64,000 bases of DNA from Patescibacteria group bacterium (GCA_038063455.1 JBBTVB010000003.1:1714-65713), one strand, 5' to 3'; counted from the first letter of the stretch, positions 3,487-60,590 are shown. A program made the numbers and translations. The notes: generated by a model from the sequence alone, not told the origin.

Positions 3487-4986
3487 TTACGCGGCAATAC
3501 GTAGCCGAGTAAGGGCTTTAACTTCAAGCTGCTGCACACGTTGACGGGTGACACTCATTTTGTCAGCAACTTGCTGCAAGGTACGGTACACACCAGCGTC
3601 GGACATGTCGAGACCGAAACGTAGGATCAGCACCTGCGAGAGACGCGGATCGCTTTGCTGCATCTTCTCGAGCTGCCCACGTCGTCTGGCCGAAAGGATC
3701 TTTCGGAAGGTACCGAGACGACAAATGGGAAACTTCTGGGGAAGAGCAGACACCTGTAGCGCACGGCTCAAGCGGGCGTGATTTTGAAGTTCGCGCTGAC
3801 GCATGGCCTTTTTACGTTCCTGCTTCTCATACGCTTTCACCTGCGAGTGAACTCTCTTGACGTATGCGTACACGCTAGGTGCGGGGTGAAAATCTCTAGC
3901 ACCATAGCGCAGGTACAAGAGCACGGCATTCACCTGAACAGAAACGTAGCTATTGCACCGTTCAGAAAACCCAAACTGCATGCCAACAGCTGACTGCGTT
4001 ATGAACTCCTCACCCTGCAGGCAGAAGTACCGCGCAGTCATCCGGGCACAATGGAGATTGTAGCGGAGCAATTTTTCGAACTGCTTGCGTCGCAAACCTT
4101 GTAACTGCAGGAGAAATGTCCGCTGCCCCGCATAGGCGCGTGAACGGTTCTCTCCTGCTGACCAGCAACTGTCGGGCTGCTCATAGCCGAAGACGATTGC
4201 CACGTCTCGTGCTGTGCACAGCGCACGATAGTGTCCACTGATGATGCGCTCGCTCCCTGGTGGAATCCGAACGATCTTCAGGTTAGGGGCTTTTCGAAGC
4301 ACGCGCTTGAGTGCCCACAAAAAAGGATGGCCGTCAAAGTGCACCATTGTGGTTTCCGAACTGAGCTGTTCAAAACCCCGATGGCCATGCGAATAGCTAA
4401 TACCTACTATCTGCTTGACGAAAATGTCTGGCAGCTCACCAATTCCGGGCACGTAGACGGGCCCTGCAGCTTCTTGATACGCCACCTTCGAATCCGCCAG
4501 TTCCTCGTGGAGCGTGCGACCATCTTCAAAGCGTTCAGCATCCAACGACCTGGGCAGACCGGCCATACGTACTGACTCCACGATCCGCTTAACAGACCGT
4601 TCGGTTACATCAAGGTATTCAGCGACTTCCTGTTCTGTTGGCTTCCTGTGAAGATTGCTAGTGAGCTCTGCTTCCGCCTTTCGAAACGACCGAACCCAGC
4701 GTGCCTGAGACTGAGAAAGAGCCCCCACTCGATCAGCTTCACTCTGAAGGATACCTCGAATGCAGACGCGAAGGTATGCGTCGAGGTTCAAAATGTTCAC
4801 CAACTCCTTTCCCTTGGCGTCGAGAATCTTTGCAATCTCGACCACGCAGGCATTGATGAGATCATCTGGATCGGCCAAACCATTGCATTGCTGCAACCAT
4901 GGTTGGCGCCTGAGGAAGGCCCTAACACACGAACGAATGAGCGGCAACTTTTCTTCCAGAATGCAATTGCGCCTGGCTATTGTCAT
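3487..4986 (-). CDS. Sigma-70 family protein with a ~270-aa insertion between region 3/4.1 and region 4.2
   Basis: Residues 1-167 look like sigma regions 2-3 plus the start of region 4 (PTEQEVAEYLDVTERSVKRIVE; RSLDAERFEDGRTLHEELADS). The region 4.2 HTH (VLILRFGLDMSDAGVYRTLQQVADKMSVTRQRVQQLEVKALTRLR) appears only in the last ~60 aa. SD GGGAGA lies 8 nt before the ATG. Confidence 0.7.
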   Translation of the reverse strand: MTIARRNCILEEKLPLIRSCVRAFLRRQPWLQQCNGLADPDDLINACVVEIAKILDAKGKELVNILNLDAYLRVCIRGILQSEADRVGALSQSQARWVRSFRKAEAELTSNLHRKPTEQEVAEYLDVTERSVKRIVESVRMAGLPRSLDAERFEDGRTLHEELADSKVAYQEAAGPVYVPGIGELPDIFVKQIVGISYSHGHRGFEQLSSETTMVHFDGHPFLWALKRVLRKAPNLKIVRIPPGSERIISGHYRALCTARDVAIVFGYEQPDSCWSAGENRSRAYAGQRTFLLQLQGLRRKQFEKLLRYNLHCARMTARYFCLQGEEFITQSAVGMQFGFSERCNSYVSVQVNAVLLYLRYGARDFHPAPSVYAYVKRVHSQVKAYEKQERKKAMRQRELQNHARLSRALQVSALPQKFPICRLGTFRKILSARRRGQLEKMQQSDPRLSQVLILRFGLDMSDAGVYRTLQQVADKMSVTRQRVQQLEVKALTRLRIAA

Positions 4987-9771: not shown

Positions 9772-10185
9772 ATGGCCCGCCCAACAACGGCATTAGAAAA
9801 AGTCAGCGCGTCAGGAGTCAATGCGACGGCCGTCTTTGCGCTAACTACACCGGTTCTCCTCATGCAGGGCCCCAGCACATCCTGGCGAATACTAACAATT
9901 GGGCTCTTCTTTGTGTATACAATAGCCTGCCTACTGCTGCCTGAACGACGTGACCTAGGTATGTTCGTGGTTCGGTCAAAATATGCGCACGACTATCCTC
10001 TCTGGCAGCTAACCATATACAATCTGCTCTACACTGCCAGTTTTGCTACACTGTTCATACACCTGTGGTTCCCATTTGATGTCTTCCTCATCAACATCTT
10101 CATCATCCAACTACCAGTGGTCATATGGAAACAGACCACACTTCATGGCTATCTTGCTGGAAATATTCTCACCATAAAAAAATAG
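9772..10185 (+). CDS. Hypothetical membrane protein (137 aa)
   Basis: 4 hydrophobic segments. Starts 6 nt after the msrA stop. No family recognised. Confidence 0.55.
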   Translation: MARPTTALEKVSASGVNATAVFALTTPVLLMQGPSTSWRILTIGLFFVYTIACLLLPERRDLGMFVVRSKYAHDYPLWQLTIYNLLYTASFATLFIHLWFPFDVFLINIFIIQLPVVIWKQTTLHGYLAGNILTIKK

Positions 10186-11555: not shown

Positions 11556-12569
11556 ATGCAAGCACTCGTCTTTGAGGGGAAAGGCAAGCTTAACCTGCGC
11601 CACCTGCCGCGGCCAGAAATTGGGCCCAACGAAATATTGATGCGGGTGCGCGCCGTTGGCATTTGCGGTACCGACCTGCACATCTACAATGGCGGCACGC
11701 GAACCAAACCGGGTACGGTTATTGGCCATGAATTTTCTGGCGAGGTGGCTGCCGTTGGCAAAGCGGTAGACAACCTTACCGTTGGTGACCACATAGTGGG
11801 CGAACACGTGGTGGCCTGCAAGCAGTGCCTGTATTGCCGCACAGGGCGGCCCAACCTGTGCAACCGCGCCAGCGTGCTTGGTATAGATCGCAACGGCGCG
11901 CTCGCAGAGTATGTAGCGATTCCGGCGGACTTGGTCTACATCGTCCCCAAAAAAATACCTTTTGAAGAAGCCGCGCTCATTGAACCGCTGTCTATTGCCG
12001 TGTACGCCGCTCGCGAGGTGGGCTTCCTGTTGGAAAAACGGGTCGGCGTCATTGGCCAGGGGCCCATTGGCTTATTCCTGGACCAGGTGATGCATGCGGC
12101 TGGCGCGCAAGTAATCGGCATCGACACGCTCGACCACCGACTACGCTTTGCCAAAAAGCAGGGCTGGGTTGACTACACAATCAATCCAAAAACGGATGAC
12201 GTGCAGCGCTCGGTCGATGCTATTACCAAGCACGGCTTGGATATTGCCTTTGAAGCAGTGGGGAAGGAGCAAACCATGGACCTGGCGCTCCAAGTAGTGC
12301 GGCGCGGCGCGAAGGTGCTGGTATTGGGGGTGTTCGAGACGCCTGCCAAAATTGACATGATGCAAGTGGTGAAGAAGGAACTCTCGCTCGTGGGTTCGTG
12401 GACCTGCGCGCACGCCTTCCCAGCCAGTATCCGCCTAGTGGAAGAAGAGAAAGTGGAGCTGGGCAAACTCATTACACACCGATACCTCTTTACAGAGGCG
12501 GCTCGAGCATTTGCCGAAGCGTCCACCTACAACGAGAACCGCATCAAAAGCGTGATCACGTTTGAGTAA
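11556..12569 (+). CDS. Zn-dependent medium-chain dehydrogenase (sorbitol/threonine dehydrogenase-like)
   Basis: GICGTDLHIY, GHEFSGEV, CxxCxxCxxG structural-Zn motif (CKQCLYCRTGRPNLC), Rossmann GVIGQGPIG. Confidence 0.9.
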   Translation: MQALVFEGKGKLNLRHLPRPEIGPNEILMRVRAVGICGTDLHIYNGGTRTKPGTVIGHEFSGEVAAVGKAVDNLTVGDHIVGEHVVACKQCLYCRTGRPNLCNRASVLGIDRNGALAEYVAIPADLVYIVPKKIPFEEAALIEPLSIAVYAAREVGFLLEKRVGVIGQGPIGLFLDQVMHAAGAQVIGIDTLDHRLRFAKKQGWVDYTINPKTDDVQRSVDAITKHGLDIAFEAVGKEQTMDLALQVVRRGAKVLVLGVFETPAKIDMMQVVKKELSLVGSWTCAHAFPASIRLVEEEKVELGKLITHRYLFTEAARAFAEASTYNENRIKSVITFE

Positions 12570-12624
12570 GCGGATTTCTCGGTAACCCCTCACCTGCCTT
12601 TCGACTCACCCTACTCGCTCAAGG

Positions 12625-12655
12625 CATCCTCTCCCAGTGGAGAGGATGGGTTTTA
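12625..12655 (+). terminator. Rho-independent terminator
   Basis: CATCCTCTCC (12625-12634) / GGAGAGGATG (12639-12648), loop CAGT, then GGTTTT. Confidence 0.8.
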
Positions 12656-12722
12656 TGCGATAAGAGTTTCTCCAAGAGCCCTGCGCAGTCCCGTCATCAG
12701 ACGGGACGGAGCAGTCGTGGCC

Positions 12723-12879
12723 GGGGTAGGGGGTGTCGGGGGCATAGGGGGCGGCCTTCGAAACTCTGAGCCCCCTGGCCCCTGACAAAGAAACGTGATT
12801 GACCAGCAGCAACTGAACAAACACAAGTTCGTCGTTTCGAACACATGCAGGATTGCCACGCCCCTCGCCGAGCTCGGGG
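12723..12879 (+). repeat. Structured intergenic element, copy A (paralogue of 28692-28902)
   Basis: G-tract block. Stem AGGGGGC (12746-12752) / GCCCCCT (12770-12776). Conserved core 12791-12850 including the 12-mer TTCGTCGTTTCG (12828-12839). CCCC(12861-12864)...GGGG(12876-12879) hairpin. Confidence 0.6.
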
Positions 12880-12902
12880 CTCGCAATGACAGAAGGCTCA
12901 GG

Positions 12903-12931
12903 ATGACAATACAGATGAAACTTAGTATAAT
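12903..12931 (+). promoter_or_regulatory. galU promoter ATGACA-17-TATAAT
   Basis: ATGACA 12903-12908, 17-nt spacer, TATAAT 12926-12931. ATG is 27 nt downstream. Confidence 0.65.
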
Positions 12932-12958
12932 CACTACACTCACGTTGAACTTTTTGGT

Positions 12959-13834
12959 ATGCAAAAAATCCGCAAAGCCGTTATTCCCGCCGCAGGATTA
13001 GGCACGCGCTTCCTGCCCGCCACCAAGGCGATGCCCAAAGAAATGCTCCCCATCGTGGACAAGCCCATTATTCAGTACGTGGTAGAAGAGGCCGTGGCCA
13101 GCGGCATTGAAGATATCATCATTGTAACCAGCAGCAACAAGCGCTCGCTGGAAGACCACTTTGATTACCCATACGAACTCGAAAAAAAATTGGAAGAAGC
13201 TGGTAAACATGAACTCTTGCAGGAAATCCGTCGCATTGCCGGGCTAGCCAACTTCATTTACGTGCGCCAACGCGGGCCCTACGGCAACGCCTCCCCCGTC
13301 CTGACCGCCAAGCACATCGTGGGCGACGAACCCTTTGCCGTGCTGTGGGGCGACGAATTCATTCATGCCGAGCCACCACGACTCAAACAAATGGTGGACG
13401 TGTACAACGAATACGGAAAATCCGTGATTAGTGCGGTACGCATTCCTAACCCCCAAGATGTGAGCAAGTACGGCATTGCCGATGTCGAAACCGTGAAAGG
13501 CACGGTCCATCGGATTAAACAGATTGTCGAAAAGCCCAAGCCCGAAGAAGCACCCAGTAACCTGGCGGCGCATGGGGCGTATATCCTGACGCCAAAAATC
13601 TTCGAGCACCTCAAAGCACTTAAGCCCGGCAAAGGTGGGGAGCTGTGGCTGGTGGATGCCATTAATGCCCTGGCCAAAGCGGACGACGTGTACGCCAAGG
13701 AAATTGAAAATGGCGACTACTATGACACGGGCAACAAATTTGACTACTTGCGCGCGAACATTGAGTTTGCCTTGCAACGGGATGACCTGCGCGACAAACT
13801 GCTGGCCTACCTGCGCACCAAACTCCAAGACTAA
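12959..13834 (+). CDS. galU: UTP--glucose-1-phosphate uridylyltransferase
   Basis: KAVIPAAGLGTRFLPATKAMPKEMLPIVDKP, VLWGDEF and the overall GalU pattern. Confidence 0.95.
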   Translation: MQKIRKAVIPAAGLGTRFLPATKAMPKEMLPIVDKPIIQYVVEEAVASGIEDIIIVTSSNKRSLEDHFDYPYELEKKLEEAGKHELLQEIRRIAGLANFIYVRQRGPYGNASPVLTAKHIVGDEPFAVLWGDEFIHAEPPRLKQMVDVYNEYGKSVISAVRIPNPQDVSKYGIADVETVKGTVHRIKQIVEKPKPEEAPSNLAAHGAYILTPKIFEHLKALKPGKGGELWLVDAINALAKADDVYAKEIENGDYYDTGNKFDYLRANIEFALQRDDLRDKLLAYLRTKLQD

Positions 13835-21299: not shown

Positions 21300-22564
21300 G
21301 TAACAGCGCGTCGACGAGCCATCCGAGTGTACCAGAAAACTGTGGCAGCAAAAATGGCTACGTTAAGCATAGCGACTATGAGTGACCCGCCCCAAAAGTT
21401 ATCCAGGCGCGTACCCTCATGTTGCGTGAGAATAATAAACACCACCACAAGATTCCAAAGAAATGTACATGAAAGTGCTACGTACAGCCAGCGGGCGGGA
21501 CGAAAAGCCGGCAGCGCAGGGATGAGTAGTGCAAAAAATGGAAAGAGGTAGCGCTCGTGCATCTGGGTTGGAAGCATAAAAAATGCAAAGGCGAGAAATG
21601 CCGCGGCTAGCCACAGCCCTTCAGTGGCCTTTGCTCGTGATCGAAACCAAACTGCAAAAGCCACGGCACTAAAAAATAGCCCTGCCCCAATAAGCACCAT
21701 GGGCATACCGAAGAGTGAGGCAACATCGGTACGGTACGTCCAATACCCGCCAGAAAAAAACCACCAAAGATTAAATGCGTTCGCCGACGGCACAGGGTTG
21801 GTATCTTTTGCCTGAGCAATAACCTGGAATACTTGGTTGGTCTTACCAGTTAAAACAAAAGGCAAACATAACATGAACGCCGTCCCTAGCCCGGCTCCAA
21901 GACTCCGTATGAGGGTTCGCCAATATGGCCAACGATGAAATATGGCATACGCCAAAAGTGGAGCGAGTGCTAGGCTTTGTAATTTAATAAAAAATGCAGC
22001 TGTAAATGCCACCACCGCCCATGTTAACTTACGTTGCGTCAGCAGCCAGACACATAACACCATGAAGAAGGTATTAATGGCATCTACTTGGCCCCAAGCC
22101 GCAGTCGTAAACAACATTGCGGGGTTGGCTGCATACAGTACCGCGGCCCCCAGTGCCCAACTTTCGCCCCAGCGCCTTCGAACAATGTGGGCTAGGAGAA
22201 GTATTGTTGCCAGCTCAAAGAGTATTGCGGGTGTTTTAAAAATAATTGAGGATAAAGGGGTGCCTACCGCGGTTGCTGGTTCAAACAACGCATGTACTTG
22301 TGCAAGGACGTGCAACGTCATCAAGTAAGGCGGAAGGTAGTTAGGGAGCGCAATAATTCTATAGTCAGGATGTTCAATCGGGTGCTCGTATACCTTGGTT
22401 AGGCCGTACGTGCTTGCGCTATAGCCCCATAACTGGAAAAGTAATGTGTCGCCACGCGACTCGATGGATGTTTGTGGGGCGATGACAAAACGAATTGCGG
22501 CCGCCCCAAAAATAATGAAGGTGAGAATGCGGCGGTAGTTTAGCACTACTGAGGGTTTAGTCAT
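21296..22564 (-). CDS. GT-C-like membrane mannosyltransferase-type protein (DUF2029/PMT_2-like)
   Basis: 422 aa, about 11 TM segments. The first loop contains D/E residues and NYLPPYLM. Translationally coupled within the operon. Confidence 0.5.
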   Translation of the reverse strand: MTKPSVVLNYRRILTFIIFGAAAIRFVIAPQTSIESRGDTLLFQLWGYSASTYGLTKVYEHPIEHPDYRIIALPNYLPPYLMTLHVLAQVHALFEPATAVGTPLSSIIFKTPAILFELATILLLAHIVRRRWGESWALGAAVLYAANPAMLFTTAAWGQVDAINTFFMVLCVWLLTQRKLTWAVVAFTAAFFIKLQSLALAPLLAYAIFHRWPYWRTLIRSLGAGLGTAFMLCLPFVLTGKTNQVFQVIAQAKDTNPVPSANAFNLWWFFSGGYWTYRTDVASLFGMPMVLIGAGLFFSAVAFAVWFRSRAKATEGLWLAAAFLAFAFFMLPTQMHERYLFPFFALLIPALPAFRPARWLYVALSCTFLWNLVVVFIILTQHEGTRLDNFWGGSLIVAMLNVAIFAATVFWYTRMARRRAVT

Positions 22565-24116
22565 TGCGAGAGATTACCCAAGCCTTATGGGGATTTGAAA
22601 AGCCGCGAAGAGGTATGCGGCCCAATACATTGGTCCCAATATACTGGCCTGTAGATACTTCGGCGAAGACGGCGCCCGCCCGCGACGAGGGACACTGGGC
22701 TCGCTTGCAAAAGTGGTAACGGCCAAGACGCGTAGTACGGTACCAATTGATGCTCGTAATTTCGAAATCATGATCTTTCGCAAGTGTGGTTGGATTCCAT
22801 GGGCGCAAAAGCATGAAGAATATTTGCGGCTGATTCAAACCGTCGTCAACAATCCACACCTCATTTGCGGGCGTACGCTCTAGCCGCGCAACCAATGTGT
22901 GAATCTCCGGGGCAAAAAAAATATTTGCCTGCCCAAAACCTAAGCCAAAAAAATTCGATGGCTGAACAAATACTACCAAGCCAGCGGCTCCAAGGGCAAG
23001 CCCTACCGCAGCAGCACTAATTTGCTGCCACCGGAAACGCAACCACGTAGTCACTAGCGATTTGCTGCTGCGCACAATGCTCCAGGTACCTACGATAAAT
23101 AGTACGCTTAAAAGCCCACTTGGTCGTATTTGGTGAGGATTTGCATCGGTAAGCATGGCGGGTAAAAGCGCCGCCACCAACCAACTCAGAAGCATGACGT
23201 GAAACCAGCGCTCCGTGCCAGCTGGGCGGGCGGAGAAAAAGAAAAGGGGTATGCCAAAAAAGAAGAGCAAAAAATCAATGGGTCCAACGGAAATTTGTCC
23301 TAGGCCCCAATGCAAAAGATTGAAGTAGGCTAAAAAATTATTGCCAAGCTGACGCAGGCCCGGCACAACGCCGTTTTGAAAAATTGAAATCTCCTGAAAA
23401 TGTCCTGCCCCCAATTGGTTGGCAGAAAGTGAAAGCAGTGGAATAAGTAACACGGCAACAACCCCAAGCGCAACCCAAGTTGAGGGGTGGCGCCAGTGGA
23501 TGCGTCGAAAAGTGAGGCTAACTGTCAGAATCGATGCGAGTGGAAAAAACAACCTGCCTGCGCCGTAGCCAAAAAAACCCGCGCCCCAGGCCAGCACCGC
23601 CAGCGGCATAAGCCACGGGCGTCGGTCCACTGCAGAAAAGTATGCCACGGCACCTAGGCTAAACAGCGTTGGGAGCCACACCGCTTCGTGGCCCAGACGG
23701 CTTAGTGTAAGGTGCCAAGGCGAAACTGCAAGTGCAGCGCCCGCAAGTAAGCCAATATTCCAACTGCCACAAAGTCGCTTGCCCAAAAGAATCGTTGCCC
23801 AGACCAGCAGCACCCCGGCGAGGGCGGAAGGCAAACGAGTTGCAACTAGCCCGGGGCCAAAAATTGCCGTTGTTGGTATTGCGGCATATGCAGAAATAGC
23901 CGAAGCGTTATCATTTTCATGGCTAAATGCTTCTAGGGTAAGTGGCCACGGGTGGCCATGCTGGTCACGCCCGGTGGTAAGCAAACTATACGCTTCGTAG
24001 CCGCGCTCGGCTTCGTCTTGATTTATGCCGTACGGCACGCGCTCTAGGGCAACAATGCGCAACAGGCTTGCAATAAAGAGTACCGCAATAAAAAAAATAC
24101 GCTGGCGCGGTGTCAT
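22557..24116 (-). CDS. ArnT/PMT-like (GT39/GT83-type) membrane glycosyltransferase
   Basis: Track ORF 22557-24191. LLRIVALERVPYGINQDEAERGYEAYSLLTTGRDQHGHPWPL is the typical first-loop motif. Start set at ATG 24116, which forms an ATGA overlap with the upstream GT2 stop. Confidence 0.7.
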   Translation of the reverse strand: MTPRQRIFFIAVLFIASLLRIVALERVPYGINQDEAERGYEAYSLLTTGRDQHGHPWPLTLEAFSHENDNASAISAYAAIPTTAIFGPGLVATRLPSALAGVLLVWATILLGKRLCGSWNIGLLAGAALAVSPWHLTLSRLGHEAVWLPTLFSLGAVAYFSAVDRRPWLMPLAVLAWGAGFFGYGAGRLFFPLASILTVSLTFRRIHWRHPSTWVALGVVAVLLIPLLSLSANQLGAGHFQEISIFQNGVVPGLRQLGNNFLAYFNLLHWGLGQISVGPIDFLLFFFGIPLFFFSARPAGTERWFHVMLLSWLVAALLPAMLTDANPHQIRPSGLLSVLFIVGTWSIVRSSKSLVTTWLRFRWQQISAAAVGLALGAAGLVVFVQPSNFFGLGFGQANIFFAPEIHTLVARLERTPANEVWIVDDGLNQPQIFFMLLRPWNPTTLAKDHDFEITSINWYRTTRLGRYHFCKRAQCPSSRAGAVFAEVSTGQYIGTNVLGRIPLRGFSNPHKAWVISRND

Positions 24117-27517: not shown

Positions 27518-28579
27518 TTATGTTCCGAGCTTCTGCTTGAAGTAGTTTACCCAGTGAATCTCGGAGGGGTTTACATGATGGCGTAAGCCTACACCCAGCG
27601 TCAGCGCGCCGCCAAGCACCAACGCTTCAATGGCTTGCGCTAAGGCTGTGCGGCCAGTGAGCCGGATCGAGATGACCTTAGCGCCATTCTTCTGGACCAC
27701 ATCCGCAGTGAGACGGAAACGTTTTTGAATGCGCGGACTGTAGAGCGCGGATTGCAACATGAGGAAGGTTGTCTGCTTAACGTTCGCTTTGGGGTTACCC
27801 AAACCTTCCATCAGGTGGTGGTTGAGTTCGGGAATGGCAAAAAATATTGCAACTGATTTCGCAGTTTCGTTAAACTGGTTGGCCATCGCATGCGCGGCGC
27901 CCACCAAGTGCTCGGCCGCAGTGACATAGACTGCGCGGCCTTGCAGTGCAGCACTCAAACCGACAATTGGACTTGTAGCTGACCGCAAGTCGGTGCGGCG
28001 GATAGTCCGCTCAGCAACTTTCAGGGCGTCATCCAAAATTGTTGGTGATATATCGAGTAGGCCCATCTTGCGGAGCATGCCCAGCAACCCAAACACCGCG
28101 TACCCTAAGCCAAGGCGCGGCTGCTTGGAGGGGTTTTCAATAGGGTTAAAGATATAGGCCGGGAGCTTATTCGTCTTTGCAATGCGTCCCAGCTGCCCAC
28201 CCGCAGCAATCACTGCCACGCGCGCACCAGATTTCTTGGCCGGCTGCCAGGCGGCAATGGTCTCTTCTGTGGTGCCAGAATAGCTAGCTAAAATAACCAG
28301 GGTCCGCTTGCCGACCCAGGCTGGCAATTGATAGTCGTTGATAATAACCAAGGGTACACGAAGTTCCTGACTGCAGGCCGCTTGAATAATGTGCGCGCCC
28401 AAAGCGCTCCCGCCCATGCCGGCCAGGAGAATCGTATCTACTTTGCCGCGCAATGCTGGGAACTTCAACGCGCGAATGTCACTAACCGCCTGGTGCCCTT
28501 GGCGCGCAAAACGCTCCACCGACCCGAACACATCTTGCGGGTCGAGCTGTTTGAGTAACGCAGGGAAGGGTGTAGGCAT
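27518..28579 (-). CDS. Bifunctional phosphoglucose/phosphomannose isomerase (SIS-domain, archaeal-type PGI/PMI)
   Basis: LLAGMGGSALGA, ILASYSGTTEET, second SIS half, C-terminal LGVGLRHHVNP. Confidence 0.75.
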   Translation of the reverse strand: MPTPFPALLKQLDPQDVFGSVERFARQGHQAVSDIRALKFPALRGKVDTILLAGMGGSALGAHIIQAACSQELRVPLVIINDYQLPAWVGKRTLVILASYSGTTEETIAAWQPAKKSGARVAVIAAGGQLGRIAKTNKLPAYIFNPIENPSKQPRLGLGYAVFGLLGMLRKMGLLDISPTILDDALKVAERTIRRTDLRSATSPIVGLSAALQGRAVYVTAAEHLVGAAHAMANQFNETAKSVAIFFAIPELNHHLMEGLGNPKANVKQTTFLMLQSALYSPRIQKRFRLTADVVQKNGAKVISIRLTGRTALAQAIEALVLGGALTLGVGLRHHVNPSEIHWVNYFKQKLGT

Positions 28580-28691: not shown

Positions 28692-28902
28692 TTGGGGGTC
28701 TGGGGGTTCGAAAAGCGGACCTTTGGTAGACGAAGTTTAGCCTACCTACTCTGGGCACGCGTTTGAGAACCCCCAGCGGTCTTTAGGCGCCACCCTTTCT
28801 GACGGCAGAAAGGGTGGCATAAACGTGACCGACCGATAGAAACAGAACAAAAATCCCTTCGTCGTTTCGTACAAACATGTAAATCCCCAAACGAGTTCGG
28901 GG
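28692..28902 (+). repeat. Structured intergenic element, copy B (paralogue of 12723-12879)
   Basis: Stem CTGGGGGTTC (28700-28709) / GAACCCCCAG (28767-28776). Copy-specific perfect 13-bp hairpin 28789-28818. Conserved core 28821-28885 with TTCGTCGTTTCG (28858-28869). CCCC(28885-28888)...GGGG(28899-28902). Confidence 0.6.
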
Positions 28903-28919
28903 TAACAGCGCAGAATGCA

Positions 28920-28948
28920 TTGACCAATGCGCCTTCATATTTTATAAT
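28920..28948 (+). promoter_or_regulatory. yebC promoter TTGACC-17-TATAAT
   Basis: TTGACC 28920-28925, 17-nt spacer, TATAAT 28943-28948. SD GGGAGGA at 28960-28966. Confidence 0.65.
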
Positions 28949-28981
28949 TCATGCACTTTGGGAGGAATTTTTGCTGTTGTT

Positions 28982-29704
28982 ATGTCCGGACATTCCAAGT
29001 GGTCAGTTATCAAACGCGCGAAAGGGGTTACGGATGCGCGGCGCAGCCAGGTCTTTACCAAACTCGGCCACGCCATTACGGTCGCCGCGCGCTTAGGTGG
29101 GGCCGACCCCACCATGAACTTCCGTTTGCGCTTGGCCATTGAAAAAGCCAAAGCCGCCAGCCTGCCCAAAGACAATATTGACCGGGCCATTGCCAAAGGC
29201 TCGGGTACGGATGGCAAACAAATTGAGGAAGTAACGTACGAAGGCTTTGGCCCGGGCGGCGCCAGCCTGGTTATCCAAACCATGACCGATAACCGCAATC
29301 GGACCGTAACCGAATTGCGGACGTTACTCGGCAAAAAAGGCGGGAACCTCGGCAATGAAAACAGTGTCGCCTGGCAGTTCAGCAGCAAAGGTGTTCTCCG
29401 CATCTCGGCTGACCAACTGACGGGCAAAGATAAAGACGCGTTGGAACTCGGCTGCATTGATGCCGGCGCGGATGACGTGCAAGACGATCCGGAAGGCATA
29501 ACGACTCTGTGCCCACCAACCGACCTCCCGAAACTGCAAACCTATATTGAAACGCAAAAGTTGACCCCTGCCTCGGCCGATGTTGAACTCGTACCGAACA
29601 CTCCCCTCGCTCTTGCTGAAGACGAAAATACAAAACTTCACAACCTCATCGAAGCCCTTGAAGAACACGACGATGTCACCGCAGTCTGGACGAACGCGAA
29701 GTAA
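28982..29704 (+). CDS. yebC: YebC/PmpR-family transcriptional regulator
   Basis: MSGHSKWSVIKRAKGVTDARRSQVFTKL is the canonical N-terminus. The track ORF starts at TTG 28958; ATG 28982 preferred. Confidence 0.9.
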   Translation: MSGHSKWSVIKRAKGVTDARRSQVFTKLGHAITVAARLGGADPTMNFRLRLAIEKAKAASLPKDNIDRAIAKGSGTDGKQIEEVTYEGFGPGGASLVIQTMTDNRNRTVTELRTLLGKKGGNLGNENSVAWQFSSKGVLRISADQLTGKDKDALELGCIDAGADDVQDDPEGITTLCPPTDLPKLQTYIETQKLTPASADVELVPNTPLALAEDENTKLHNLIEALEEHDDVTAVWTNAK

Positions 29705-36108: not shown

Positions 36109-37161
36109 ATGAAAAGACTCCGCATTGCCCTGGTTGCGCCGCTGGCCGAGCGCGTCCCGCCCCGCAAGTACGGTGGCACCGAACTGGTCATTGGCAACTT
36201 GGCCAACGGTCTAGTAGCGCGCGGCCACAAGGTAACGCTGCTGGCCCGCTCGGATTCCAAAACCAAAGCCAAGCTCGTCTCCTTCTACCATCCCGACCCG
36301 CGGGCCCGCTCCCGCTACGCTTCTCGTGGCTACATGGTGCCCAACTACTGGCAGACCTTGGAGTTGGGTTGGGCTTTTGAACGGGCTAGGCAATTTGACG
36401 TGATGCACTTTCACATTGGCTCGACCTTCTTCCCCTACACCCGGCTAGTACAAACGCCGTGCGTACTCACGCTGCACGGCCGCTTGAATACCACAGAAGC
36501 AAAAAAGGTGCACACGGCGTACAAAGAGGTGCCCCTGGTTTCCATCTCGAACAACCAGCGCACGCCCATCCCGAAACTCAACTTCATTCGGACAGTGTAC
36601 AACGGCATTGATATGGCGGCGCATCGCATGGGTACGGGCAAGGGGAATTACCTCGCTTTCCTGGGCCGCATGAGCCCGGAGAAAGGGCCGGTGCAGGCTA
36701 TCCAGGCCGCCAAGCGCGCTGGGATGAAACTCGTGATGGCTGCCAAGGTAGATACCGTTGACGCTGGCTACTTTACCAAAAAGGTGAAGCCGTTCATCGA
36801 TGGCAAGCAAATTCGATTTATCGGCGAAGTTGACCACGCGGGCAAAGTAAAACTCCTCCAGGGTGCCGTTGGTCTGCTTGCGCTCATCCAGTGGGAAGAG
36901 CCCTTCGGCTTGTTCATGACCGAGGCCATGGCCAGCGGCACACCGGTTATTGCCACCCATCGCGGCTCGGTGCCAGAAATTGTCGCGGATGGCAAAACCG
37001 GCTTTGTGGTGGGTGACGTGACCGACGCCGTTCGGGCCATTAAAAGTCTGCACACCATCAACCGCCAAGCCTGCCGTGCGCGCGTGGAAAAATACTTTTC
37101 CATCGAGGCAATGGTCAACGGGTACGAAGCTGTGTACGCTAAGCTTACGCACAAAAGATGA
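36109..37161 (+). CDS. GT4 glycosyltransferase, paralogue 2 of 3
   Basis: VPPRKYGGTELV, YLAFLGRMSPEKGPVQAIQ, WEEPFGLFMTEAMASGTPVIA. Confidence 0.8.
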   Translation: MKRLRIALVAPLAERVPPRKYGGTELVIGNLANGLVARGHKVTLLARSDSKTKAKLVSFYHPDPRARSRYASRGYMVPNYWQTLELGWAFERARQFDVMHFHIGSTFFPYTRLVQTPCVLTLHGRLNTTEAKKVHTAYKEVPLVSISNNQRTPIPKLNFIRTVYNGIDMAAHRMGTGKGNYLAFLGRMSPEKGPVQAIQAAKRAGMKLVMAAKVDTVDAGYFTKKVKPFIDGKQIRFIGEVDHAGKVKLLQGAVGLLALIQWEEPFGLFMTEAMASGTPVIATHRGSVPEIVADGKTGFVVGDVTDAVRAIKSLHTINRQACRARVEKYFSIEAMVNGYEAVYAKLTHKR

Positions 37162-46727: not shown

Positions 46728-48098
46728 TCACATGTAGAGCCGCTGCTTGATGAGGGTGAGGTCTTGCTGGAGTTTAAGATCTTCTTTAAGTTGCCTCGTC
46801 ATTTTTTCGATTGCGTGCATAGCGGTGGAGTGGTCCCGGCCACCGAGCTCTTCGCCGATGGTTGGGAACGACGCTTGAATCTCTTCCCGCATGAGGTACA
46901 TAACTATTTGCCGCGGTTTTACCAGCTCTTGGCGGCGGCTCTGGCCCAGCACCTCAGAGACTTTTACGTCGTAGTACTGGCACACCGCCCCAATAATTTG
47001 CTTCGGCGTGACCGCGTGTTGCCGTTTGGTGTGCGTGGCTTGTGTAATGGAAGAGAGAATGTCTTTAATAGAGTCTACGGTGGGCGCGGTGTGGCTTAGG
47101 TTGTGTACCGCGACAATCCGGTTGAGCGCGCCTTCCAGCTCCCGGACGCTATTCTGGATGACGTTGGCAATGTATACCAGCGCGTCGTCACTCATGTGGA
47201 GTTTACGCTCGCTGCATTTGGCCCGCAGGATAGCAATGCGCGTTTCCAGGTCGGGTTCCTGCACGTCGGCGATCATCCCCCACTCAAAACGAGTAAGCAG
47301 CCGAGCTTCCAGCGCCGCAATGGCCTTGGGCGGCCGATCGGACGACAAGATGATTTGCTTATTTTCTTGGTGGAGCGTGTTGAAGGTGTGGAAGAACTCT
47401 TCTTGCGTTCCTTCTTTGCCAGTGAGGAACTGCACGTCGTCCACGAGCAGCACGTCGACCGACCGCCAGCGTTCGCGGAATTTTGCCATTGTCCCTTTGT
47501 AAATAGCCTGTACGAATTCGTTGGTGAATTGCTCGCAACTCACGTACAGGACACGAGCTTTTGGGCTGTGCGCCAGAATGCCGTGGCCAATGGCCTGCAT
47601 CAGGTGGGTCTTGCCCAAGCCCGCACCGCCGTAGATGAAGAGTGGATTGTAGATGTCGCCCGGCTTCTCGGCGCAAGCTTTGGCCGCGGCCTGGGCCAGC
47701 TCGTTGCCCTTACCAACGATAAAGGTGCCAAAGGTGTAGCGCGGGTTGAGGCCGCCCTTGCCCCCCATGGCCTTCAGCAAAGGGGCGGCTTCCTCGACCA
47801 CCTCGGGTGGGGCACTGGTTACCGCATCCACCGAGGCTTTTGGGCTTTCTACTCGGTAGGCAACGCTTGCTATCTCTTTCTCGGTTAGGTGTTGCAGGGC
47901 GTTGAGGATGTGAGAGTGGTATTTGGTCTCCAGCCAGGACTTTACGAAGTCCGTGGGCACGCCAATAACCGCCTGGTCGCCCTCAATGGTGCTGATGAAG
48001 GTGTTTTTGAACCAGGTCGTGAAGTTGGCTTTGCTCAAATGCAGCTCTAATTCGCCTAGTGTGGCTTCCCAGAGCTTATCATTTGGTAATTTCGGCAT
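46728..48098 (-). CDS. dnaA: Chromosomal replication initiator DnaA
   Basis: YTFGTFIVGKGNELA, NPLFIYGGAGLGKTHL, LLVDDVQFL, C-terminal DNA-binding domain HSTAMHAIEK. Confidence 0.97.
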   Translation of the reverse strand: MPKLPNDKLWEATLGELELHLSKANFTTWFKNTFISTIEGDQAVIGVPTDFVKSWLETKYHSHILNALQHLTEKEIASVAYRVESPKASVDAVTSAPPEVVEEAAPLLKAMGGKGGLNPRYTFGTFIVGKGNELAQAAAKACAEKPGDIYNPLFIYGGAGLGKTHLMQAIGHGILAHSPKARVLYVSCEQFTNEFVQAIYKGTMAKFRERWRSVDVLLVDDVQFLTGKEGTQEEFFHTFNTLHQENKQIILSSDRPPKAIAALEARLLTRFEWGMIADVQEPDLETRIAILRAKCSERKLHMSDDALVYIANVIQNSVRELEGALNRIVAVHNLSHTAPTVDSIKDILSSITQATHTKRQHAVTPKQIIGAVCQYYDVKVSEVLGQSRRQELVKPRQIVMYLMREEIQASFPTIGEELGGRDHSTAMHAIEKMTRQLKEDLKLQQDLTLIKQRLYM

Positions 48099-59366: not shown

Positions 59367-59456
59367 ATGTTTTGGTGATTAGTGATGAATGACGTAGTAG
59401 TGCGGCTGTGTATAGTATACGTCTCTGCTTCCCTATCTCCCACTTTGGTTATTTAT

Positions 59457-59560
59457 TTGTCATCCCGAGCCCCGCACATGCGGGACGAGGGATCTCGCAT
59501 TTTGGAGAGTCATAAATTCGAGATTCCTCCCCCTCGATAAACTCGGGGTCGGAATGACAA
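59457..59560. repeat. 104-nt inverted-repeat / nested-stem element
   Basis: Terminal arms TTGTCAT+CCCGAG (59457-59469) vs CTCGGG...ATGACAA (59542-59560). Inner 11-bp stem GAGGGATCTCG (59487-59497) / CGAGATTCCTC (59519-59529) with one G-U. Small hairpin CCCGC-ACAT-GCGGG (59471-59484). Confidence 0.5.
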
Positions 59561-59564
59561 GAGG

Positions 59565-60590
59565 CTACCTTCCCACTTCCCACACTGGGTTCACATCCAG
59601 TTTCTGCCAAGGCGTCGAATGTCCACGTGCAAGCTCCATTGCGCCAGCCACAGCGATCATGGCGCCGTTGTCTGTGGTGTACTGCAGTGGAGCGACGCTG
59701 AAGTGAAAGCCGGCAGCTTGTGACTCTTTCGCCAGGCGCTCACGCAGTACGCTATTTGCCGCGACGCCACCCCCAAGGAGAATGCACTTGGGTTTTTTTG
59801 TTTGTGCGGCGCGGAGTGTTTTACCCACCAGCACATCCACAATTGCGGTTTGTACCGAGGCGGCCAAGTCGGCTTTGCCTTGCGGGTTCAGGCGCGGGTG
59901 TTTTTGCACAAATGTTGCGACGGCAGTTTTGAGGCCGGCAAAGCTAAACTCAAAGTTTTGTTCTTTCAGCATTGGCCGTGGCAGTGGGATAATTGCCCTG
60001 CCCTTGAGTGCCAGTTGCCCAATAGCTGGGCCGCCAGGGTAGGGCAAGCCCATGAGCTTGGCGGCTTTATCAAAACATTCGCCTGCTGCGTCGTCGCGGG
60101 TTTTGCCGATGAGTTTCACTTTGTCTTTTTCCAGCCACAACAGTTCTGTGTGGCCGCCAGAAACAACCAGCGCCAGCGCGGGGAGTTGCGGTTGCGTATC
60201 GTTGAGCCAGCAACTCGCCAAATGGCCGGCAATATGGTTTACGCCGATGAGCGGCTTGTTGAGCGCAAAGCTCAGCGTGCGTGCGGTTTCGACGCCCACC
60301 AGTAGCGCGGTGCTTAAGCCCGGGCCACTCGTCACGGCAATCGCATCAATGCCCGCCAGCTTGGTGTGGGCTTTTCGGAGCGCGGCTTCCAACGTCGGCA
60401 TGATAGTGGCCGCGTGTTCCCGCGCCGCAACCTCCGGCACCACGCCGCCGGTCTTGCGGTGGGCCAGGACTTGCGATGCTGTGACCATACTGATCACGCG
60501 ATAGCACCCGCGGTGCGTTTCCACCACGGCAATAGACGTGTCGTCGCAGGATGTCTCGATGCCGAGGATGGTGTGGTATGGGGCTGACAT
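59565..60590 (-). CDS. tsaD: tRNA N6-adenosine threonylcarbamoyltransferase TsaD
   Basis: ILGIETSCDDTS, GVVPEVAAREH, VTSGPGLSTALLVG, VNHIAGH, GGGVAAN. Confidence 0.95.
   Translation of the reverse strand: MSAPYHTILGIETSCDDTSIAVVETHRGCYRVISMVTASQVLAHRKTGGVVPEVAAREHAATIMPTLEAALRKAHTKLAGIDAIAVTSGPGLSTALLVGVETARTLSFALNKPLIGVNHIAGHLASCWLNDTQPQLPALALVVSGGHTELLWLEKDKVKLIGKTRDDAAGECFDKAAKLMGLPYPGGPAIGQLALKGRAIIPLPRPMLKEQNFEFSFAGLKTAVATFVQKHPRLNPQGKADLAASVQTAIVDVLVGKTLRAAQTKKPKCILLGGGVAANSVLRERLAKESQAAGFHFSVAPLQYTTDNGAMIAVAGAMELARGHSTPWQKLDVNPVWEVGR

Follow-up and report, generated by a model that had tools for sequence, protein, structure and literature searches.

Two intergenic segments of the window, a term used here for the whole 64,000-nucleotide stretch of Patescibacteria DNA that was analysed, are best read as lineage-specific, hairpin-rich, non-coding interspersed repeats of about 200-220 nt, found in a clade of Patescibacteria (Parcubacteria-like groundwater MAGs). 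The repeat family has not been described before, while its kind is already known from BIME, BOX, ERIC, bcr1 and MITE-type repeats. This reading is preferred because the copies are dispersed beside unrelated genes, three sites are found both filled and empty, and the modules keep a fixed order, and also because the units are associated with foldback elements, decay locus by locus and keep their helices by compensatory changes on one strand.

Copies A (12723-12879) and B (28692-28902) lie in the same orientation, and all coordinates listed for them in the sequence-only reading match the sequence, including the stems AGGGGGC (12746-12752)/GCCCCCT (12770-12776) of copy A and CTGGGGGTTC (28700-28709)/GAACCCCCAG (28767-28776) of copy B. 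Copy A is located between a zinc alcohol dehydrogenase gene (ADH; 11556-12569, +) and galU (12959-13834, +), and copy B between a divergent PGI-like gene (27518-28579, -) and yebC (28982-29704, +). A shared core of about 60 nt had been proposed from hand alignment, and it withstands shuffled controls: local alignment of the whole intergenic regions of both copies scores 42, against 18.2±2.1 (maximum 28) for 500 dinucleotide shuffles, none of which (0/500) reaches 42, with an aligned core of about 57 nt. Each copy recovers the other with the search programs that had been suggested, with E≈1e-5 in blastn and 7.5e-6 to 2.3e-5 in nhmmer, varying with the query copy, and neither program finds a third copy within the 64-kb window. 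The 12-mer TTCGTCGTTTCG, which had been listed as an exact shared block, occurs in the window only at 12828-12839 and 28858-28869, and at least two matches are present in 0/100 shuffles. The core similarity of A and B is real homology and not chance. The heptamer TTCGAAA, which had been placed 3' of the G-run in both copies, is there in A (12757-12763) and B (28707-28713) and is not conserved in the other members.

The element had been described as having two copies; seven are found once related Patescibacteria contigs are included. The five copies outside the window (L005, L014, L017, L020 and L021) and the two inside it are 178-241 nt long and come from at least five contigs or genomes. Loci of relatives were reached by synteny, through galU and YebC homologues. 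L005, whose galU is 96% identical, carries an element at the place of copy A and orthologous to it, which resembles copy B in its CTGGGGGT…ACCCCCAG stem, its long interior and the same 13-bp hairpin, and the L014 copy is located between two glycosyltransferase (GT) genes. A metagenome scan with the 3' arm of P2 and the start of the core gave three real matches (L017, L020 and L021) and two chance matches, and the three-block core pattern gave 0 matches in metagenomes. Among species-representative genomes, the pattern AAACGTGA-N26-32-TTCGTCGTTTCG has two chance matches only, in Pyrinomonadaceae and Rickettsiales coding DNA; viral contigs gave 0 matches, and plasmid and phage collections gave none. 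The covariance model R1, for which all seven copies served as input, gives them 101-214 bits and finds no further copies in the 277 kb of sequence searched. Five of the seven copies were obtained by searching for the element itself, and unbiased sequence has a density of roughly one per 30 kb.

The earlier remark that the element is not recognisable as a known RNA family agrees with Rfam 15, which at gathering threshold finds only a tRNA and AsdA (inside dnaA) in the whole window and leaves the element unmatched; permissive scans of both copies give noise only, at 10.8-23.4 bits, far under the gathering thresholds. Literature on CPR structured RNAs, MITEs, REPIN/RAYT and the TIR sequence contains nothing relevant among what was found. 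Several resemblances to other elements were considered and rejected. A guide RNA (bridge RNA, ωRNA) does not fit, as no recombinase or nuclease gene stands beside any copy and comparison of the P1 interior with the flanks gave nothing significant; copy A has a hammerhead-like CUGAUGA on its minus strand, which sits within the loop of a hairpin and is matched by no ribozyme model; and the bases that make AAACGTGA and GGTTCGAAA resemble parS, a T-loop or tmRNA are not conserved in other members.

The full unit is composed, from 5' to 3', of GGGGG-TYT, the P1 rod with a G5:C5 base, the linker CRGTCTTTDGGC, the perfect 12-13-bp hairpin P2, an N6 spacer, P3 (CGTGAYYGAC/GTCGTYHCG) and a tail, and behind it there is often an end module (…ATGACA) that belongs to a separate inverted-repeat element. 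The coordinates of these parts are given in Table 1. The 5' motif GGGG(G)-TYT-GGGG(G) is common to six of the seven members.

Table 1. Parts of copies A and B and of a free-standing inverted-repeat element, in window coordinates
Feature	Position	Strand	Description
Copy B 5' G-run 1	28694-28698	+	GGGGG, then TCT
Copy B P1, long irregular rod	28700-28776	+	base CTGGGGGTTC/GAACCCCCAG, then tandem GA/AG internal loop, variable interior
Copy B conserved linker	28777-28788	+	CGGTCTTTAGGC; family consensus CRGTCTTTDGGC
Copy B P2, perfect 13-bp hairpin	28789-28818	+	GCCACCCTTTCTG-ACGG-CAGAAAGGGTGGC
Copy B P3 core	28824-28869	+	CGTGACCGAC (28824-28833) pairs GTCGTTTCG (28861-28869), 27-nt loop
Copy B 3' tail	28870-28882	+	TACAAACATGTAA; family pattern ACAnAnGnAARAT
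Copy B degenerate 3' module	28883-28908	+	ATCCCCAAACGAGTTCGGGGTAACAG; homologous to right end of inverted-repeat element
Copy A upstream hairpin module	12676-12714	+	CTGCGCAGTCCCGTC/GACGGGACGGAGCAG
Copy A G-tract, four G4-5 runs	12726-12752	+	last run = 5' strand of P1 remnant
Copy A P1 remnant	12745-12777	+	T·G, A-T, G5:C5, C-G; 17-nt loop
Copy A P3 core	12794-12839	+	CGTGATTGAC (12794-12803) pairs GTCGTTTCG (12831-12839); no P2
Copy A 3' module	12850-12893	+	GGATTGCC...CTCGCAATGACA; matches right end of TGTCATTGCGAG...CTCGCAATGACA inverted-repeat element, L011 9806-9931
Copy A second partial end-module copy	12896-12911	+	GGCTCAGGATGACAAT; contains ATGACA -35 hexamer (12903-12908) of galU promoter
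Free-standing ~105-nt inverted-repeat (MITE-like) element	59456-59561	.	TTGTCATCCCGAG...GTCGGAATGACAA; right half of the same family as the A and B 3' modules

The compensatory stem changes that had been noted between A and B are real, and the relatives contribute more covariation. P1, whose 40-65-nt interior divides into sub-families, is closed by C-G, T-A or T·G, has T-A, C-G or G-C after the G-run and shows three Watson-Crick types among its basal pairs; four copies have the tandem GA/AG internal loop, in place of which L021 has Watson-Crick pairs. Two pairs of P2 vary on both sides between copies (C-G to T-A and G-C to T-A), and its base is G·T in L014 and L020. The two arms of P3 pair around a 27-nt loop with 98% of cells paired and with G·U or U·G at two positions in 4/7 copies, and the small inner hairpin of P3 covaries in four copies (CAG/CTG, ACAG/CTGT, TCCG/CGGA and ATCA/TGAT). 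Paired cells make up 94.6% of the model alignment, against 35-65% with the partners slid. The formal covariation score is kept to a modest value by P1, which varies most among the helices and defies column-by-column alignment. By hand tally the helices have about 13 G·T wobbles and zero A·C, all on the + strand, and therefore the + strand is the folding strand, as RNA or as single-stranded DNA. The fold of copy B has z = -4.0; the MFE of the whole element is uninformative on strand choice, being better for + in four copies and for - in three. P2 and P3 sequences are conserved between genomes with about 80% nucleotide identity in adjacent coding DNA, and P2 and the junction are conserved though synonymous sites are near saturation, a pattern that selection for mobility and selection on function would both explain. 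An outer closing stem P0, between G-run 1 and the 3' C-run, was rejected as a family feature, since it is convincing in copy B alone; the 5' G-run and 3' C-run are complementary in only 5/7 copies. Across 24 nt, the P3 loop of copy B (28835-28858) shows 71% complementarity to the Shine-Dalgarno and start region of yebC (28963-28986), with CAAAAAUCCCU pairing AGGAAUUUUUG at 10/11 positions; this is probably chance because the promoter sits between the two.

Comparison of the members identifies copy B as a standard, full-length member and copy A as a truncated, decayed derivative, in which P2 is absent, the P1 interior is deleted and extra G-runs have been gained. The perfect 13-bp hairpin and the 57-nt loop expansion, which had been taken as extras of copy B, are the family norm and were lost from copy A, and the list of shared parts was mis-parsed, as it compared a decayed member and counted a foreign end module as its third part. 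That third part, a CCCC...GGGG hairpin, was correctly placed (12861-12879 and 28885-28902) and is a separate module, the right end of an inverted-repeat element. The orthologous pair of copy A and the L005 element differ by the loss of P2 and the P1 interior in A; their spacers are unalignable, with the core still recognisable, because the adjacent coding DNA is only about 80% identical. The four G4-5 runs of copy A (12726-12752), spaced by 2-4 nt (GGGGTAGGGGGTGTCGGGGGCATAGGGGG) and present in this copy only, could form a G-quadruplex.

The right end of the inverted-repeat element has homologues in the 3' modules of A, L005 and L021 and, in degenerate form, of B; L014 and L020 are entirely without this MITE-end module. 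Its outer stem covaries between copies (ATCCC/GGGAT, ATTGC/GCAAT and ATTCC/GGAAT). An element of this type at L011 9806-9931 has perfect 12-nt TIRs, TGTCATTGCGAG/CTCGCAATGACA, and model R1 matches the free-standing one of the window at 59480-59566 with 28.8 bits. A lone half-site CTCGCAATGACT of the TIR family at 22559-22570 (-) may be a solo end or chance, and the CTCGCAATGACT-type TIR pattern at two mismatches is without enrichment in the window. Upstream of copy A, the module at 12676-12714 shares the 18-mer GAGCCCTGCGCAGTCCCG and a hairpin with L011 15696-15773, an insert at a glycosyltransferase junction, which is a different locus and the point where that contig ends; the shared module is another repeat and probably the cause of the L011 assembly break. 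A near-identical 22-nt stretch, ACC(T)CCTCTCTCGGCCTTC[C/G]GC, is found 5' of the elements in L005 (~4690-4712) and L017 (~12715-12740), just past the stop codons of the unrelated ADH and dnaE genes, and may be a further 5' module or a shared type of terminator.

The seven copies are found in six gene contexts: ADH→galU (copy A and L005), PGI↔yebC, GT→GT, dnaE→membrane protein, small membrane protein↔trigger factor, and a convergent pair with a DAGK-like gene. Insertion polymorphism is seen at three orthologous sites. The galU site is empty in L006, L007/L008, L022/L023 and L024, which have galU 90-92% identical and a spacer of 56-65 nt; SelR lies upstream in these relatives, except that L006 has a short MFS_1-type ORF instead and that the upstream gene of L024 is cut and unidentified. 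These empty sites lack the ADH gene and the element alike, yet share the AACTTAGTATAAT promoter, and the region upstream of galU is a variable insertion spot, where the element came together with, or beside, the ADH gene, so that the polymorphism is not a clean single-element insertion. The ADH gene and the 389-nt spacer behind it (11556-12958) are present only in the window and L005. At the yebC site, L016 has a 136-nt spacer with no insert, L014 has an extra gene, and L011, which is the same contig as L005, has a different TIR element of about 125 nt; all three keep the TTGAC -35 and TATAAT -10, and the L016 and L011 flanks are identical. At the GT352/GT343 junction the genes overlap by 4 nt in the window (37158-37161), a 273-nt insert with the element separates them in L014, and in L011 another repeat is present and the contig ends. 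When filled and empty sites are compared at the three loci, the flanks are too diverged to reveal a target-site duplication, with an unconfirmed GAAGAAA direct repeat in L014.

ATGACA-17-TATAAT (12903-12931) and TTGACC-17-TATAAT (28920-28948), which had been named as the promoters following A and B, are each the sole sigma-70-like site in their intergenic region, and copy A is preceded by a canonical terminator (12625-12655). In both the window and L005, the galU promoter takes its -35 hexamer from the ATGACA end of the 3' module, and relatives without the insert have no good -35 at galU; this predicted -35 contribution is the only demonstrable effect of the element on a neighbour. For the unit itself, neither a sigma-70 promoter nor an intrinsic terminator is predicted in the window, L014 or L017, and a weak -10-like TAGAAN/TAAAAN is seen by eye 3-8 nt upstream of the G-run in six copies. 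A riboswitch or 5' leader is not indicated, since the best promoters are downstream of the element, the neighbour genes are unrelated, and the L020 element faces the end of a convergent gene. The sequence CACTACACTC is present just upstream of the galU start (12932-12941), also in element-free relatives, and at L014 18864-18873, upstream of a glycosyltransferase start and downstream of the insert; its recurrence may reflect a common leader or promoter motif, or may be coincidental.

The link to the galU and yebC promoters that had been implied would make the element dedicated upstream regulatory DNA or RNA (an operator, an UP-like element or a leader), which is very unlikely and already contradicted by the comparative data. 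Both window copies stop 18-24 nt before a -35 box in the orientation of the gene, the end module gives galU its ATGACA in the window and L005, and the P3 loop of copy B has the complementarity to the yebC ribosome-binding region noted above (71%, 24 nt); against these points, L006, L007, L022 and L024 keep the galU promoter AACTTAGTATAAT… and L016 and L011 keep the yebC promoter TTGACCAATGC…TATAAT with the element missing, the same element adjoins unrelated genes at the remaining sites, and, lying upstream of the promoter, it is outside the mRNA. In L020 the element is followed, about 30 nt past its 3' end, by the stop codon of a gene running towards it, and therefore no gene is left downstream to regulate. 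The position of the element upstream of promoters is best read as incidental. About equally unlikely is a small hydrophobic peptide on the minus strand, such as MFVRNDEGIFVLFLSVGHVYATLSAVRKGGA in copy B, which would make the locus a multicopy small-protein or type I toxin-like one with a structured mRNA. The statement that no reading frame is conserved holds as regards coding constraint and needs one qualification, that one minus-strand frame (…VRNDE-x8-VNH…) is open through the core in 7/7 copies; the sole L014 indel in this frame is of 3 nt, and variation in its Arg (CGA/CGT/CGG) and Val (GTT/GTG/GTC/GTA) codons is confined to the third position. Variable columns are nevertheless spread evenly over codon positions (11/10/11), the synonymous fraction of 0.20 is not above that of other frames (0.26 in + frame 2), ATG is present only in B and L005, a usable start is missing from A and L020, and the copies have three different stop positions. 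The 'hydrophobic' stretch of L020 contains three Arg residues, and the variable positions are also accounted for by bulged or wobble positions of P3. No called protein resembling concatenated translations of several copies and frames was found among 5.8 billion proteins, and the conserved ORF, start and stop and the codon-position bias of a small-protein or type I toxin gene are not seen. By these comparisons the element is judged not to be coding, which upholds its description as a repeated, structured, non-peptide element.

The unit is fairly probably a mobile or selfish element of the non-autonomous kind; its conserved hairpins would be cis-sites, bound as folded single strands by a trans-encoded enzyme. 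Candidate enzymes would be an HUH/Y1 protein (RAYT/IS200-like), of the kind encoded by the L005 genome, or whichever transposase mobilises the TGTCAT…ATGACA elements. Copies would accumulate between the upstream terminator and the next promoter, where insertions may be tolerated in a compact genome, and effects on neighbours would be by-products, either the ATGACA end acting as the galU -35 or a stable structure in read-through transcripts. The L005 protein (1890-2336, 148 aa, MPNHVHVLV … YMHCNPV) is of RAYT/IS200 type with a faint PF01797 match, and its gene is wedged between housekeeping genes with no flanking repeats; the window is without a Y1/HUH gene and has an unrelated 137-aa membrane ORF (9772-10185) in its place. 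A tblastn search with the L005 protein finds no homologue in the window or in the loci then compared, no transposase is linked to any of the seven copies, and no terminal inverted repeats bound the P1-P2-P3 unit, perfect TIRs being present only in the TGTCAT…ATGACA elements. A less likely explanation, to be held tentatively, is a family of functional structured + strand RNAs, either paralogous small RNAs or cis-modules co-transcribed with neighbours, in which P1-P2-P3 would be a stabiliser, a processing site or a protein-binding scaffold, like transcribed REP/BIME, BOX and Correia repeats. All copies are sense to at least one neighbour, which fits a functional RNA equally well, and in 4/4 co-directional pairs the element is sense to both genes and never antisense to both neighbours, the L014 copy lying in sense inside an operon. 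The three helices, preserved through compensatory and wobble substitutions whose G·U pairs are all on the + strand, the z-score of copy B, the conservation of P2 and P3 and the weak -10-like motif in six copies point the same way. Against a functional RNA, no promoter or terminator of its own is predicted, though gene promoters of this genome are near-consensus; copy A, with a canonical terminator before it and the galU promoter after it, is possibly not transcribed at all, and it has persisted without P2 and most of P1; the minus strand folds equally well or better in 3/7 copies; Rfam has no match; and gain and loss at three sites, with a contig broken at a repeat, are traces that mobile DNA typically leaves. 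The mobile-element and sense-RNA readings are not exclusive, because such repeats often act on transcripts. It seems improbable that P1-P2-P3 is a new structured RNA class of about 200 nt, itself mobile or propagated via an RNA or single-strand intermediate; the + strand fold (G·U wobbles, tandem G·A loop, conserved P3 junction) would then be functional, a trans-encoded enzyme would recognise it and copy or insert it between genes of streamlined Patescibacteria genomes, and it might also serve the host as a module that stabilises or processes transcripts.

Patescibacteria genomes are about 1 Mb in size and tightly packed, and spacers of 200-400 nt full of structured repeats are unusual in them. 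The family, now defined by seven members and a covariance model, can mark intergenic turnover and hot spots of recombination in uncultured hosts, and it accounts for contig breaks in MAGs and for 'orphan' long spacers. Such elements should not be taken for gene-specific regulators, and the end module that donates a -35 box illustrates a route of promoter rewiring. If the sense-strand RNA is functional, it would be among very few structured RNAs from Patescibacteria beyond the universal ones.

The interspersed-repeat reading can be compared with known systems. Like BIME and REP sequences of enterobacteria, which have RAYT partners, the units are short, non-coding, hairpin-forming intergenic repeats with a fixed module order, located between genes or past gene ends, probably often co-transcribed and with strand-specific hairpins, and a RAYT/IS200-like Y1 gene is present in one genome of the clade (L005). 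REP sequences are 20-40 nt long, whereas the unit here is much longer, about 200 nt with three distinct helices, P2 being a 30-nt palindrome within a larger fixed unit; it has neither a GTAG-type 5' tetranucleotide nor inverted doublets (REPINs), and its copy number is apparently low. The RAYT-like gene of L005 has a 61-nt upstream spacer, 0 nt downstream and no P2-like hairpin. Pneumococcal BOX (boxA-B-C) and bcr1 of Bacillus cereus are modular repeats of 100-200 nt without coding capacity, which have a predicted RNA structure with compensatory changes, are intergenic near promoters or terminators and vary in presence between strains; bcr1 has target duplications (TTTAT) and BOX has variable numbers of modules, neither of which was recognised in the present unit. 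The present unit shares with them repeat size, structure with compensatory changes, intergenic dispersal, variable presence and lack of coding, but has no sequence relationship with them, and its host phylum is Patescibacteria instead of Firmicutes.

As MITEs are, including Correia elements, the unit is short, non-coding, multi-copy, dispersed, non-autonomous and insertion-polymorphic, and its outward -35-like end (ATGACA) makes a hybrid promoter. The TGTCAT…ATGACA elements (59456-59561 and L011 9806-9931) are classic MITE-like foldbacks, while the P1-P2-P3 unit differs from MITEs in having no TIRs and no recognisable target-site duplication. IS200/IS605 PATEs, which have neither TIRs nor TSDs, resemble it in lacking TIRs, in strand-specific subterminal hairpins with wobbles on one strand and in the presence of the Y1 family in the clade, but in the unit no conserved target tetranucleotide was identified, the two end hairpins are unrelated, and no TnpA/TnpB gene is adjacent. 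The folding strand in the window is probably the leading-strand template, opposite to the preference of IS608. In the window dnaA is located at 46.7-48.1 kb and the cumulative GC-skew minimum is near 54-56 kb; the replication origin is probably close to this minimum, and both copies would then be on the same replichore. The AsdA match of Rfam (57.7 bits, 47553-47633) is antisense inside a 456-aa ORF (46728-48098, -) with a DnaA-like Walker A region, and most likely reflects coding conservation of dnaA and not an sRNA.
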